Shown here: piece after piece, positions 35,901 to 45,493 of the stretch
Layout: every line of letters begins with the position of its first letter
Position numbering within the stretch: position 1 is the stretch's first letter
From: a virus
Taxonomy: Duplodnaviria; Caudoviricetes
Direction: 5' to 3' (one strand)
DNA: 64,000 nucleotides
IMG/VR virus record: IMGVR_UViG_3300019378_000009
Location: 45,429 to 109,428 of that record
Notes under the pieces: model-generated
The model's input: only the letters and a program-made list of their open reading frames with translations
What the model was told of the DNA's origin: nothing
Databases searched by the model: none
Position numbers and translations under genes: made by a program

Positions 35901-36172
35901 ACCCTCTCCCTTTTGCATTGTTGAAATTTAACGAGCGCGTCCGGGCGCGACCCGGTAACTTGCACAAAAAGTTGGGGTGCACGCAGTATAAATTTGTGCA
36001 AAATTTTTGAGGAAGAGGATTGACTTTTTCAGTGATTTGTGGTATAATATAAGTGTCAAGGGGCGAGGGAAACCCAAGTTGCAACAGGGTAGTGAACGGA
36101 ACTTGAAAAAAATTTTTGAAAAATTTTTCAAAAACCCCTTGACAAATCCACGAAAGTGTGGTATAATATAAG

Positions 36173-36429
36173 TGTAAGAGGGAAGGACAACAAACTGTAC
36201 TTGCACCACCGTCACCAAGAGTGTGAGAGCGGAGTGCAAGAGGGGAGAAGTCACCTTGCAAGGCTTCCCTTTCACAACCGAGGTAATGAGGTCACTCTCC
36301 GCAGACTCGCAAAGCCATAAGAGGTGGGAACGCAAGTTGTTCTGTAAGACGAGCCCTCGGTATAGAAATCAGTAGACCAAAGACAACACTCAACCCTTGA
36401 AAGAGTGTGTGGACGGAGCGAGGGTATAT
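36173..36429 (+). ncRNA. Candidate structured non-coding RNA upstream of tRNA-Ser
   Basis: Strong promoter with no RBS/ORF; stems CTTGCAC/GTGCAAG, CCTTGCAAGG, ACCGAGG/CCTCGGT, GAAC-GCAA-GTT, ACACTC/GAGTGT. Confidence 0.5.
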
Positions 36430-36534
36430 GAGAGGGTAGCTCAAGGGTAGAGCGGCATCCTGCTAAGATGCGGCAGACGAGGTCAGTGCACGGACTAGTC
36501 CACTGTATGGGTTCGAATCCCATCCCTTTCACCA
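36430..36534 (+). tRNA. tRNA-Ser(GCT)-like RNA with oversized variable region
   Basis: Acceptor GAGAGGG/CCCTTTC, D arm GCTC/GAGC, anticodon arm GCATC-CTGCTAA-GATGC, T arm ATGGG-TTCGAAT-CCCAT, encoded ACCA. Confidence 0.8.
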
Positions 36535-36671
36535 TAAAGACTTGGCGCGGCCGGTGTCGCGCCGGGCCGCCCGGGCTGCCGAAAATTTTTTCAGCTTTTT
36601 CGCAAAAACACTTGACAAACAAATAGTTTTGTGGTATAATATATACAGAAATAAAGAATGAGGTGTCTATT

Positions 36672-36854
36672 ATGAAACACGTGGCTTACAATCTTGTCAC
36701 TCACGAAGTACTTTTTTCCAATCATTCCAATGCTTTAAAGCGCAGAGTTACCCAAATAGAACGTTGGAATATAGCTAATGGTTATGGCAAGGGCAAATGG
36801 ATATTCGCCCACGGCAAGCAGTGTGAATATAAAATTGCTGCCAAGCTCCACTAA
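36672..36854 (+). CDS. Hypothetical early protein
   Basis: Own promoter and GAGGTG RBS. Confidence 0.7.
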   Translation: MKHVAYNLVTHEVLFSNHSNALKRRVTQIERWNIANGYGKGKWIFAHGKQCEYKIAAKLH

Positions 36855-37004
36855 AAAGGAGCTAGCGCCCGGGCGGCCGACTGGGATTGTTAAATTTTTC
36901 ACAAACAAGCAAGTGGGAAAATTTTAAAAAATTTTTAAAAAAGAGCTTGACAAATCAAAGCTTTTGTGATATAATATACTTGTAAGAAAGAGAGGATACA
37001 ACCA

Positions 37005-37487
37005 ATGTATAGACTTGATAGAATGAGAAAACAATACGAACAATTCACTGCCGCAGAGGGTTACATCATCGGCTTCCGTGATGGCGACAAGGTGTATGCG
37101 GTAGACCTTGATAAAATACCTCGCAGATACACCAGAATACAAAAGGAAAGCAAGAGCAACGGTGGTGGCTATGGCTTGTATGTAAAAATCACCGAACCTG
37201 CTATCCTGTCCGAGCTACTGCCGAAAGCCTACTATGTATGCGAGCTTGCCGACCTCATAGACAATGACGGACACCTCAACGGCAAGGGCGAACTCAAACA
37301 CTTTAACAAAGGTGTTATGTTTGAAAAGAAAATATGGGAACTCAACGGTATGGAGTTCAGGGGCAAGGACAGTGTAAGATTTTACGAAAGTGGTGATATT
37401 ACCATTGACGGAAAAGAAATACAAATTAAGTTTGAATGGGCAAGAATTTGTTATGACCGCACACTAAAAAGACTGACCGCCAAATAA
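37005..37487 (+). CDS. PD-(D/E)xK-like nuclease-fold protein, circularly permuted relative to 35496-35900
   Basis: NKG..FE, GD and IQIK motifs in the C-terminal half; ES..NGG in the N-terminal half. Confidence 0.55.
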   Translation: MYRLDRMRKQYEQFTAAEGYIIGFRDGDKVYAVDLDKIPRRYTRIQKESKSNGGGYGLYVKITEPAILSELLPKAYYVCELADLIDNDGHLNGKGELKHFNKGVMFEKKIWELNGMEFRGKDSVRFYESGDITIDGKEIQIKFEWARICYDRTLKRLTAK

Positions 37488-37592
37488 GGCGGCCGGTCCC
37501 GGCCCGGGCGGCCGTTCATAATTTATTTACATTTGAGGGGTTGACTTTTCCCTCTCGGTGTGATATAATATATAGAAAGTGAGGACACGAAT

Positions 37593-37736
37593 ATGTTGCA
37601 AAAGAATATAGAAAAACAAGAGCGAAAAAATCGCAAAACTTGGCAGGGATATTTCACTCGCAAGACACCAACCAAGAAAGAAAAAGAAGAAAAAAATCGT
37701 AAAAAATACAAAAAAGGTATTGACAAAGACGATTGA
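37593..37736 (+). CDS. Small very basic protein (47 aa, not in ORF track)
   Basis: Promoter, GAGG RBS; MLQKNIEKQERKNRKTWQGYFTRKTPTKKEKEEKNRKKYKKGIDKDD. Confidence 0.7.
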   Translation: MLQKNIEKQERKNRKTWQGYFTRKTPTKKEKEEKNRKKYKKGIDKDD

Positions 37737-37783
37737 ATGTGTTATAATATATATGTAAGAAAAAGAAAGACGAGGTAATCAAA

Positions 37784-38038
37784 ATGGAAACCACTTACAG
37801 TGTAGAAGCAAAGTGCGATAAGACAAGCGGAATGAATGTCGAGTTCAAGGGCATTGACAATTTGGAAAGTGCGATGGCGTGTGTAACCACTCTTGAGTTG
37901 GCATTTCCAAATATCACCGTCATTTGTGAACAGACGGGCGAAATAATGTATCACCGTTTGATGTCGTTTGAGATTTTCAATCCCAGTATGGAAATGGGTA
38001 AGGCAATCTTCAAGGCAGAGTGTGATATGTACTTTTAA
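37784..38038 (+). CDS. Hypothetical early protein
   Basis: Own promoter and GAGGT RBS. Confidence 0.75.
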   Translation: METTYSVEAKCDKTSGMNVEFKGIDNLESAMACVTTLELAFPNITVICEQTGEIMYHRLMSFEIFNPSMEMGKAIFKAECDMYF

Positions 38039-38540
38039 AGGACAAGGCGCGAATCGGTAGTTATATCGGTTCGCGCCAAACACATTCTTCTCGGTTAGCA
38101 TATGCTAACTCGTGCCCGGGCGCTTTGTGCACTTTGTACATATTTGGGGCGAAAACTTTTTTATTTTTGTGTAATTTGACGATTGACTTTTCACTCATTA
38201 TATGATATAATATTAGTGTCAAGAGGGGAAGGGGTATAAACGGTCGCCACTTGCAAGCCTTCCATTGATAAAGGTGCCGAAAAATTTTTTGAAAAATTTT
38301 TCAAAAACCTCTTGACAAACCATAAGTTTTGTGGTATAATATAAATGTCAAGGGGCGGTGTTAAGCAACCGAGAAGGACACACATAAGCGCAATCGTGTT
38401 TGATGAAGTCGGGACTGCCGAAAAAATTTTTGAAAAACTTTTCAAAAACCCCTTGACAAATCACCAAAAGTGTGATATAATATAAATGTAAATAAGGAGA
38501 GCCGACACTCCATTAACAAACGGAGAAAAGGAAGAAAAAT

Positions 38541-38870
38541 ATGGCAACTATCGCATTTATCAACGAAAACGGAAATGTATCGGCAAAGGTTCGTGAGCGT
38601 CTTAAGTCGCAGACTATGACCGCTATCACAAAGGCTATGGACAAGTGCAACCTTGAAACCATAGTCAATGCAGACAAGGGCTTGTCTATCCCTCTCGGCA
38701 CTGACAAGACCAACGGTAACCCCATTTACGCACACATCTCGGTTGTGATTTCACAACACAACCCTGCGGAAAAGACCGCAAAGACCAAGACCAAGACCAA
38801 GAAAAAGGTCGCAGACGAGGTCGCTCTCCCCGACATTTTCGGGGCAGTAGACGAGGGTGAGGGAGAGTAA
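38541..38870 (+). CDS. Hypothetical early protein, family B copy 1
   Basis: Paralogue of 46726-47076 (F.NE.GNVSAK.R, VNAD.GLSI, LPDIF). Confidence 0.85.
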   Translation: MATIAFINENGNVSAKVRERLKSQTMTAITKAMDKCNLETIVNADKGLSIPLGTDKTNGNPIYAHISVVISQHNPAEKTAKTKTKTKKKVADEVALPDIFGAVDEGEGE

Positions 38871-39255: not shown

Positions 39256-39327
39256 ATTTTCCAAAACCCCTTGACAAATCGGTTTGTTTGTGATATAATA
39301 TAGGTGTAAGAAAGAGAGGTAACAACT

Positions 39328-39713: not shown

Positions 39714-40166
39714 ATGATGCTTGGAAACACCATTCTTGCACTCAACGACATCAAGGAACTTGAAGTCAAAATCTCCGACACCAAGAACGGAGAATGTATC
39801 CACCAAACCCAACGAAACGGCATAGGTGCGAAACTCCGTGAAGCACTTGCCAACGATTTCTTGCAGATTTTTCCCTACTCGGAAAATGCAGAGGACATCG
39901 TGGCTTATGTAACGGACGACGGGCTTGTGCTTGAAATTCCCAACCAAAGCGTCAAAGACGGCATTTCCAATGTGAACGGCAGTGGCGCAATCACTGTGGA
40001 ACTCGGCTTTACGGTTAAGAACTTGGAATACAATGCACAAGACGAAAGCGAAAGCCACAAGGTCAAGGTTGCCGAAAAAGAAGCCAAAGCAAAGGAACTT
40101 GCCGAAAAGAAGGCAAAGAAAATTGCGAAAGACAATGCGGCTCGCAAGAAGGCAAAGGGAGAGTAA
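39714..40166 (+). CDS. Hypothetical early protein, family A copy 1 (Lys/Ala-rich tail)
   Basis: Paralogue of 43279-43752 and 47772-48266. Confidence 0.85.
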   Translation: MMLGNTILALNDIKELEVKISDTKNGECIHQTQRNGIGAKLREALANDFLQIFPYSENAEDIVAYVTDDGLVLEIPNQSVKDGISNVNGSGAITVELGFTVKNLEYNAQDESESHKVKVAEKEAKAKELAEKKAKKIAKDNAARKKAKGE

Positions 40167-43278: not shown

Positions 43279-43752
43279 ATGCCCAACTTTATTAACACCA
43301 ACACCGCCCTCAATGCCCTTAAAGGTACTACCGTTAAGGTAAGTCAGACCAAGAATGGCGAGGCTATCCACCAGACTATGCGAAATAAAATCGGTGCGGT
43401 ACTGCGTGAGGCTCTTTTTGCAGACCTTAAAGAGATTTTCCCCACCTCTACCAACCCCGAAGATATCGTAGCATACCTCACCGCAGACGGAATTATTCTC
43501 GAGATTCCTAACGAGAGTGTAAAAGACACTATCACCAATGTAAACGGTAGCGGTGCAATAAGCCTTGAAATCGGCTTTACTGTTAAAAATCTTGAATACA
43601 ACGCACAGGACAGTGCAGAGGCATACGAGGTAGACAGAGCCGAAAAAGAGGCGAAAGCCAAAGCCAAAGAAGAGGCAAAGGCGAAGAAAATCGCCAAAGA
43701 CGAGGCAGACCGCAAAGCCAAAGCCAAAGCAAAGGCGGAAAAGGGGGCATAG
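43279..43752 (+). CDS. Hypothetical early protein, family A copy 2
   Basis: Shares HQT.RN, LEIPN.SV and GSGAI..E.GFTVKNLEYNA with the other copies. Confidence 0.85.
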   Translation: MPNFINTNTALNALKGTTVKVSQTKNGEAIHQTMRNKIGAVLREALFADLKEIFPTSTNPEDIVAYLTADGIILEIPNESVKDTITNVNGSGAISLEIGFTVKNLEYNAQDSAEAYEVDRAEKEAKAKAKEEAKAKKIAKDEADRKAKAKAKAEKGA

Positions 43753-45005: not shown

Positions 45006-45493
45006 ATCGTCCTTTTTCTTTTATCAAAATACAAAAGATAATCCATGGCAGAAATCGTGCCCGGGCTAACATGCGCCCGGGCCGCAAATTTGAACAAATC
45101 AAGTCTATTTTATTAACAAATTGTAAACTTTTCAATCAGAAGCAACACCTCCCTTCCACAGCTGTACACCGGATATCCCATTACCGTTACATGCCTCCCG
45201 AGTAATAAACCACCGGTAATAAGCAGCTATAAGCAGCAGCAGCACCACCTGTCCTTTGCCCATAAGCAGCAGCACAAATTTGACATAATTATTCAAATCC
45301 ACGAAAAAGCAGCTACAAGAAGCTGCAAAAATTTGAATTTTTATACGATTTATGATATAATATTTATAGAAAAAGAGGAAAAACAAGAAAAAATTACAAG
45401 CATTTCTGGAATATTTACGCATCGCCGCAGTAGGTGATAAAATAATGAATATGTAGATCTGGATATAATTATTACGAAAGGGGAAGCAAGAGA

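Follow-up and report, generated by a model that had tools for sequence, protein, structure and literature searches.

Candidate non-coding RNA cassettes closed by a helix between the predicted transcript start and the next −35 box in early regions of Clostridia phages

The closest described relatives of the genetic arrangement reported here are the promoter-early stem-loops (PeSLs) of T4-type phages, composite promoter-terminator cassettes (Arbiol et al., 2010, PMC2839356; Comeau et al., 2014, PMC4122927) whose stem-loops, often of the GGGG...CCCC type and sometimes lying over the −35 box, mediate shuffling of open reading frame (ORF) cargo, serve as terminators where they overlap the −35 box and were proposed by the same authors as recombination targets (PMC2839356). 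The arrangement itself is located in a 64,000-nt stretch of phage DNA (Duplodnaviria; Caudoviricetes), termed the window below, which covers positions 45,429 to 109,428 of IMG/VR record IMGVR_UViG_3300019378_000009. It consists of three units, A, B and C, in which a consensus sigma-A promoter (P1) is followed 5–6 nt past its −10 box by the 10-mer TGTCAAGRGG, then by 71–93 nt and finally by CCYCTTGACA, the −35 region of the next promoter (P2); the two 10-mers could pair in the transcript into a helix closing the segment between them. A further point of comparison is phage T7 with its strong host-polymerase early promoters A1, A2 and A3, placed about 120–130 bp apart without an ORF between them and producing long non-coding leaders, which are removed at one RNase III hairpin (site R0.3). 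To our knowledge, T7 has not been described as having a helix that joins a start site to the following −35 box.

The units share with the PeSLs closely packed strong early promoters of the host type, preceded by AT-rich sequence, GGGG...CCCC-type stems able to overlap the −35 box, and single-cargo cassettes swapped between phages at conserved promoter sequences; the repeated strong early promoters were found in the window phage and the cargo exchange among related loci, while a local terminator stem-loop was not found. The differences concern the stem, the cargo and the host: PeSL stems are short local terminator hairpins, whereas the two strands of a unit stand 60–110 nt apart (71–93 nt in the window), have no U-tract after them and differ in place, one being the 5'-most 10 nt of the upstream transcript and the other overlapping the next −35 box; PeSL cassettes carry ORFs, in contrast to the structured non-coding cargo in the loop of a unit; and PeSL hosts are Gram-negatives, those of the units Clostridia. 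The units are best filed with the PeSL-type promoter cassettes, relative to which their structured RNA cargo and the closing helix from start site to −35 box appear to be new. With T7 A1–A3 they have in common several closely spaced, ORF-less host-polymerase promoters opening the early region; in the units, however, every inter-promoter segment would be closed on itself, with a cargo that varies but is conserved in some cases. The 5' stabilisers of Bacillota and E. coli mRNAs in the reference list of PMC3997798 include the 5'-terminal stem-loops of ompA and aprE, the SP82 polypurine element and STAB-SD elements. The units would resemble them in a helix predicted to start with the transcript itself; the alternative is a ribosome-binding site near the 5' end, as in the short leaders of this phage. 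The known stabilisers are local mRNA hairpins, while the helix of a unit spans a long distance, closes off a domain of its own and is immediately succeeded by the next promoter. Stable RNAs (tRNA, YrlA Y RNA with its tRNA-like domain, phi29 pRNA) also have a terminal helix joining the ends of a compact multi-hairpin molecule, and one cargo family of the units has a T-arm-like GGUUCRAAUCC hairpin together with GGUAA; the units nevertheless lack a defined 3' end or terminator, and no Ro/Rsr or packaging context was seen around them.

The P1 promoters (TTGACT/TTGACA-N17-TATAAT) begin at positions 36020, 38183 and 38312 of the window and their partners at 36139, 38312 and 38453, with an ORF-less promoter spacing of 119–141 bp (Table 1). 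The promoters, the 10-mers and the following promoters were all found where an initial annotation of the window had placed them, and its statement that no ORF follows the promoters of the units was borne out: the frames counted from the start G or ATG are unrelated in sequence and span 17, 7 and 46 codons, the promoters enclose no conserved ORF, and a coding reading was rejected on these frames and on the lack of a conserved ATG or reading frame across the 104 related units described below. Its estimate of about 50–70 nt of unique sequence per unit had to be revised, as the last 28–33 of the 71–93 nt, directly before the 3' strand, belong to a shared AT-rich palindrome resembling an upstream promoter (UP) element, with 94–96% identity between the units, which leaves a unique cargo of about 42–63 nt; apart from this promoter-upstream segment, no sequence common to the three units was found. 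No terminator-like site was present on the plus strand inside the units (36050–36140 and 38215–38450), so that read-through into the next promoter seems unavoidable, and the window closing helices are directly followed by ACAAAU, not by a U-tract. TGTCAAGRGG after a −10 box occurs at only three sites in the entire 109,428-bp contig. No significant antisense match of the three cargos, or of the 260-nt leader and tRNA-like gene situated past unit A, was detected elsewhere in the 109-kb phage genome. Taken alone, the window would speak only weakly for selected pairing, by a single G-C to A-T change, because the generic leader of the phage promoters (TGTAAGAAAGAGAGG) differs from the helix 10-mer by one C and because CCCC also stands before the −35 box at 39267, a promoter without an upstream partner; the strength of the case comes from comparative data.

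Loci with the same architecture were collected from IMG/VR using the pattern TATAAT-N3-6-TGTCAAG-N45-106-CTTGACAAA and a narrower earlier pattern. About 115 loci were obtained, chiefly on phage contigs of 80–240 kb, which reduced to 104 distinct units and 84 unrelated cargo clusters, a composition that fits the conserved scaffold with variable cargo suggested from the window. A closing helix of exactly 10 bp was modal (55 of the 104 units), and some helices extend to 14–19 bp. In a few subfamilies (L102, L087, L098, L094, L018, L027) the closed domain ends 5' of the UP element of the next promoter; on this evidence the conserved entity is the predicted closed RNA domain, and the overlap with the −35 box its common compact form. 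A search for orthologous loci on viral contigs via the 109-amino-acid protein encoded past units B and C found none.

Screening of the window and 21 related loci against Rfam 15 at gathering thresholds passed tRNAs alone, and at E values up to 5 only chance-level matches fell over the units (for example RT-6, which reached 16–21 bits on the AT-rich palindromes where its threshold is 46.7, and PsrR1, which reached 18.2 bits on the unit C minus strand with a threshold of 42). Known element types were likewise rejected: an intrinsic terminator, since no terminator-like site was found on the plus strand of the units and ACAAAU follows the helix; and, on anatomy alone, retron, type III antitoxin and CRISPR-like elements, for which reverse transcriptase, identical tandem repeats and repeat-spacer structure are missing. 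A miniature inverted-repeat transposable element is contradicted by the 84 unrelated clusters among 104 units and by the absence of a duplicated flank. The earlier suggestion of tiny TG...CA inverted-repeat elements delivering a −35 box was not supported: no target-site duplication was seen, the cargo differs from copy to copy, and in chained units CCYC matches the upstream partner.

The search patterns fixed seven of the ten stem pairs, leaving only pairs 8–10 informative. Pairs 9 and 10 are nearly invariably G-C and pair 8 is evenly split: with one representative per cluster it was G-C in 33 cases, A-T in 32, G-T in 6 and A-C in 1 (Fisher p = 3e-13), and a formal count over 72 families gave GC 32, AU 31, GU 4 and other 5, a result reached in none of 500 shuffles. 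True partners were paired in 98% of cases against 38–59% in a slid-partner control. The split was replicated in an independent collection of bacterial assemblies (GC 10, AT 14, GT 3, AC 2; p = 7e-4). At pair 8 the pairing is kept in related loci, and the G-C to A-T change taken in the window as a sign of selected pairing was seen to recur as covariation over 72–84 unrelated cargo families, with switches within families.

Both types of pair 8, always matched, occur within four homologous cargo clusters, i.e., as compensatory switches, and in genomes holding both types (the window, L004, L028 and L058) they match unit by unit. In chained units (38312 in the window; L058) the CCYC fits the upstream 5' strand and not the promoter's own downstream sequence, and the unit is therefore best delimited as 5' strand, cargo and −35 region, not as a repeat-flanked promoter. 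Given the within-cluster switches, the within-genome matching and the matching in chained units, relatedness cannot account for the covariation of pair 8, and by these comparisons the closing helix, together with some of the cargo hairpins, is under selection for pairing. Within the −35 hexamer there was nothing to covary when the outer three positions were freed in the search, as the second promoter was almost always TTGACA.

The 5' strand is tied to the place where transcription is expected to begin: TGTCAAGRGG sites after a −10-like hexamer numbered 142, with a spacing of 5–6 nt in 135 of them, and nearly all remaining copies were the opposite strand of a CCYCTTGACA −35 region. The predicted start accordingly falls inside the helix, as judged from sequence. 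With the outer three positions freed, GT/AC was retained and position 1 varied without compensation, which makes the G of TGTCAAG the probable first nucleotide of the RNA. Mismatches of the G-U type exceed those of the A-C type by 6 to 1, a modest asymmetry. The covariation, the compensatory switches, the excess of G-U over A-C and the link of the 5' strand to the start support selection acting on the helix in the plus-strand transcript, at the RNA level. Fold z-scores ranged from −3 to −5.5 when the 3' strand was part of the folded sequence and were about 0 when it was left out, and the 331-nt read-through RNA of units B and C is predicted to form two separate closed domains joined by the −35/−10 spacer of the middle promoter (z = −4.2). 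A hairpin within the −35/−10 promoter spacer, plausible by eye in the window, was set aside, as no covariation at fixed spacer positions was found among 773 promoters. By these comparisons the feature is real, is far beyond chance, is under RNA-level selection, is widespread in Clostridia phages and is absent from Rfam 15.

Part of the cargo also shows paired-base changes. In family A1 five pairs are changed on both sides around a conserved CGCRTAA loop, and in the T-arm-like family, with its GGUUCRAAUCC hairpin and GGUAA segment, both stems covary. A covariance model of the latter family, combining GGUAA with two hairpins, one closed by the loop GGCAAGCC and one by a T-loop-like UUCRAAU, gave eight matches in 0.93 Mb searched, all eight inside units; two of these copies had escaped the search patterns, and their ends, GGGG/CCCC or GAGG/CCTC, match in either case. 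Loci L011, L051 and L056 have near-identical P1, P2, leader and downstream gene but different cargos, while the L051 cargo, the T-arm-like one used for the model, recurs in L071 and L093 between quite different flanks: judged from such comparisons, the cargo is modular and swapped between otherwise identical promoter flanks. Enrichment of 6-mers over the 84 cargo families revealed no universal motif, only a weak TTGCAAG signal in 6 families. The UP-element palindrome covaries in one family; as a general, unit-specific RNA hairpin it was rejected, since AT-rich palindromes also precede post-terminator promoters and, in some subfamilies, the closed domain does not include the UP element.

Pairing of transcript 5' ends was compared over 1141 promoters. 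The mean pairing probability of the first 8 nt was 0.22 where a ribosome-binding site lies within 30 nt, 0.47–0.63 for leaders longer than 60 nt or without a gene, and 0.89 for the units. The trend survived removal of all TCAAG-type starts and tandem promoters (Mann-Whitney p = 1e-21), the contrast being partly compositional, as short leaders are polypurine. These phages seem to guard their transcript 5' ends either by a nearby ribosome-binding site or by a 5'-terminal helix. RNase J1 and RNase Y, for their part, depend on the 5' end. The B. subtilis RppH requires at least two unpaired 5' nucleotides (PMC3997798).

Two other arrangements at transcript starts were noticed. In L110 and L112 (e.g., on the L110 plus strand near 2385, 3321 and 6634) strong local GC-rich hairpins with a nested inner hairpin, such as TCGCCGCGC...GCGCGGCGA, begin at about +8 after promoters and could be an alternative means to lock the 5' end. 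In L115 (2800–2925, minus strand), on the Oscillospiraceae chromosome CP091722.1, a promoter is followed by TTGTCAAGTG...CACTTGACAA closing a domain of about 70 nt in the 330-nt leader of a small gene; this domain has neither a second promoter nor an Rfam match, and near-identical copies are present in L136, L151 and L154.

With moderate confidence, the units are read here as ORF-less RNA cassettes of a PeSL-like promoter-cassette array in which the closing helix locks the 5' end. Each unit would be one cassette in an array of single-promoter early cassettes, with a folded non-coding RNA domain as its product. The host sigma-A RNA polymerase would initiate at or beside the G of TGTCAAGRGG; once the next −35 region has been transcribed, the first 9–10 nt of the RNA could pair with CCYCUUGACA and close the 60–110-nt inter-promoter segment into a self-contained domain, a longer read-through RNA then resembling beads on a string. 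The fully paired triphosphate 5' end would be expected to shield the RNA from 5'-end-dependent decay in a Bacillota host, and cleavage with trimming in the AU-rich linker of 28–30 nt may leave both ends in one helix, like those of stable RNAs, while the next promoter would restart transcription of whatever follows. The RNA would be either freed by linker cleavage or kept as a leader, and the role of the cargo probably differs between cargos.

Several observations weigh against this reading. The informative covariation of the helix rests chiefly on pair 8, the −35 hexamer being constrained by promoter function in any case. About one third of the TCAAGRG-type starts in related loci have no exact partner within 140 nt, and partnerless promoters also bear CCYC before the −35 box, with about 185 such −35 sites against 142 5' strands. 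In about a quarter of the units the helix has just 7–9 bp and the cargo is A-rich and near-structureless; a functional RNA may not be required of every unit, and some may be decaying. Cargo conservation, as judged from sequence, applies to other phages and not to that of the window, in which the cargo of unit A has one relative (L004) and those of B and C have no detectable homologue. The start site, 3' end, abundance and stability of the RNA are all deductions. Finally, a local hairpin would suffice for 5' protection, and long-range closure would be left unexplained by protection alone, as would the immediate next promoter and the conserved cargos; because protection is insufficient in this respect, the units are read as RNA cassettes with the helix as their scaffold.

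A rival account, rather unlikely, takes the units as cis-acting tandem-promoter leaders only, in which the helix protects or insulates a long 5' extension and the cargo is largely neutral filler. Read-through is certain in the absence of a terminator between the promoters, the ORF-less spacing of 119–141 bp is like that of T7 A1–A3, and pairing of the 5' end grows with leader length over all promoters, as this account would have it; some units are almost without cargo, cargo turnover is fast with almost no homologues for the window cargos, and 37 of 75 downstream genes belong to one winged-helix family, which fits a need for high early expression. Neutral filler, however, would not retain covarying hairpins with conserved loops, nor a T-arm-like motif kept across phages with differing flanks. 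The local 5' hairpin that would do the same work is in fact used in P2 leaders, and unit A stands upstream of a non-coding RNA and a tRNA-like gene, not of a protein gene.

It is improbable that the repeats act in DNA, as recombination junctions, as protein sites of mobile promoter cassettes or as ends of a miniature element moving together. Cargo exchange at promoter-proximal sequences is clear, PeSL stem-loops have been proposed as recombination targets (PMC2839356), and TTGACA is retained in the 3' strand even in a subfamily (L102, L087, L098, L094) whose functional −35 box is placed another 30 nt downstream. Recombination at the ends should, however, often yield mismatched G/T and A/C, which are rare and favour G-T over A-C by 6 to 1; the compensatory switches lie inside homologous cargo families, the 5' repeat keeps a fixed distance from the −10 box, that is, from the RNA start, and covariation, a property of RNA, is also seen in the hairpins inside the cargo. 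For a dimeric protein, moreover, the half-sites would not have to covary within a genome holding both variants. Just as doubtful is a closed domain acting as an attenuator or processing signal that limits or cuts upstream transcripts, in the manner of PeSL terminators or the RNase III sites of T7 and SP82: PeSL stem-loops overlapping the −35 box do terminate in T4-type phages (PMC2839356) and some closing helices of 14–19 bp would suit RNase III, but ACAAAU replaces the U-tract after the helix, a 10-bp helix around 60–110 nt is no intrinsic terminator, and the modal helix of 10 bp (55 of 104) is at the lower limit for RNase III.

Going further than the RNA cassettes preferred here, large Clostridia phages might carry an uncatalogued and diverse class of early small RNAs, each with its own promoter, a closing helix and a swappable cargo including tRNA-elbow-like modules, evolving and shuffling like anti-defence genes; such RNAs would have trans-acting roles against the host, e.g., as decoys that engage its RNases or its tRNA-directed or RNA-sensing defence systems; this extension is tentative and rather doubtful. 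The early regions of phages are commonly taken to be series of genes for small orphan proteins, and here some of the cassettes would encode folded RNAs. With the signature TATAAT-N5/6-TGTCAAGRGG ... CCYCTTGACA-N17-TATAAT, more than 100 units are found among uncultivated phages of gut and rumen. Should the RNAs prove stable and trans-acting, they would represent a large untapped pool of phage non-coding RNA, and fast cargo evolution is what would be expected of RNAs for counter-defence or for taking over the host. Should they work in cis alone, the units would show how Bacillota phages protect and insulate transcripts from stacked promoters, knowledge of direct use for designing expression systems in Clostridia and Bacilli. 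In both cases a single −35 box would be selected for promoter function and for RNA pairing alike, an unusual situation that is open to testing.

Table 1. Units A–C, neighbouring features of the window and related genes at other loci (window coordinates unless a locus is named)
Feature	Position	Strand	Remarks
Unit A, promoter P1 (TTGACT-N17-TGGTATAAT)	36020..36048	+	TTTGTGCAA motif upstream
Unit A, helix 5' strand TGTCAAGGGG	36054..36063	+	5 nt past the −10 box, approximately +1
Unit A, variable cargo	36064..36106	+	holds GGGTAGTGAACGGAA, common to L004 only
Unit A, AT-rich UP-element-like palindrome TTGAAAAATTTTTCAA	36107..36134	+	common to the three units; predicted hairpin adjoining the closing helix
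Unit A, helix 3' strand CCCCTTGACA	36135..36144	+	36139–36144 is the −35 box of P2
Promoter P2 after unit A	36139..36167	+	upstream of the 260-nt non-coding leader and the tRNA-like gene
tRNA-Ser(GCU)-like gene	36430..36531	+	insertion of about 32 nt in the variable region; past unit A and P2
Unit B, promoter P1 (TTGACT-N17-TGATATAAT)	38183..38211	+	
Unit B, predicted RNA domain	38217..38317	+	TGTCAAGAGG 38217–38226, cargo, AT-rich hairpin, CCTCTTGACA 38308–38317
Shared promoter, P2 of unit B and P1 of unit C	38312..38340	+	
Unit C, predicted RNA domain	38346..38458	+	TGTCAAGGGG 38346–38355, cargo, AT-rich hairpin, CCCCTTGACA 38449–38458; fold z = −4.9
Third promoter of the B-C chain	38453..38481	+	short leader bearing a ribosome-binding site
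First protein gene past units B and C	38541..38870	+	109 amino acids, without family assignment
GCCCGGGC/CGGCCG palindromes	35930–35960, 36541–36580, 36862–36885, 37488–37515, 38112–38125, further cassette ends		
Winged-helix family members	L051:2379-2753, L089:4008-4352, L058:595-930, about 34 more loci	− (three named)	

A downstream gene could be identified for 75 units. The most frequent one, present behind 37 of them, encodes a protein of 105–130 amino acids with a weak MarR-like winged-helix signature below the Pfam cut-offs, whose best PHROG matches are a 'Ren-like exclusion protein' and transcriptional regulators. Its members start with MTNREFYN or MTKKEMF and contain KPTKTQxENE; the window phage lacks this gene. 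Past unit A, the tRNA-like gene has the anticodon loop CUGCUAA (GCU, Ser), scores 56 bits against the Rfam tRNA model and was missed by ARAGORN; the non-coding leader before it (36170–36429) folds no better than shuffled sequence (z = −0.3).

The window is the final part of a 109,428-bp contig of a large gut or rumen phage with a G+C content of 36.9%. Structural genes occupy the minus strand up to about 35.1 kb of the window, and from 36.0 kb a plus-strand early region of small genes follows, nearly each of them with a near-consensus sigma-A promoter and an extended −10 box (TTGACW-N17-TGnTATAAT). Exact TTGACW-N15-19-TATAAT sites number 28 in the window against 0.33 expected and about 35 across the contig, most of these being preceded by an AT-rich upstream region, and after most promoters the leader ATAAGTGTAAGAAAGAGAGG brings a ribosome-binding site to within about 20 nt of the start. 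The phage terminase is akin to those of large Bacillota phages, e.g., Geobacillus E3 and SPbeta-like phages, and the unit signature is present in contigs binned with Acutalibacteraceae, Oscillospiraceae, Ruminococcus and other Clostridia (metagenome-assembled genomes and isolates), with candidate units also on contig NZ_FRCT01000014.1 of Ruminococcus flavefaciens Y1 and in Ruminococcus sp. YE282; from this kinship and binning, the host of the window phage is almost certainly a member of the Clostridia.

A second promoter class was noticed in which TTTGTGCAAnnTTGCCATA stands immediately 5' of TTGACTTTT (window 39657, 41128, 41776, 42420, 43216 and 44329; also L004, L005, L052 and others); in related phages an inverted upstream copy, TTGCACAAA, is frequent, and the arrangement looks like an operator for a dimeric regulator. 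P1 promoters of many units fall in this class, and many of them have weaker −35 boxes and operator-like TTGCACAAA/TTTGTGCAA palindromes, whereas the P2 promoters have full UP elements. Nearly all protein cassettes of the early array have GC-rich GCCCGGGC/CGGCCG palindromes at their ends, in a genome of 37% G+C; the RNA units have no such end palindromes. Two paralogous early proteins of 150 and 157 amino acids are encoded on the plus strand at 39714–40166 and 43279–43752. The former, the only one of the pair scanned, had no PHROG match; both share the conserved core TKNGExIHQT...NVNGSGAI...GFTVKNLEYNAQD and have Lys/Ala/Glu-rich tails.

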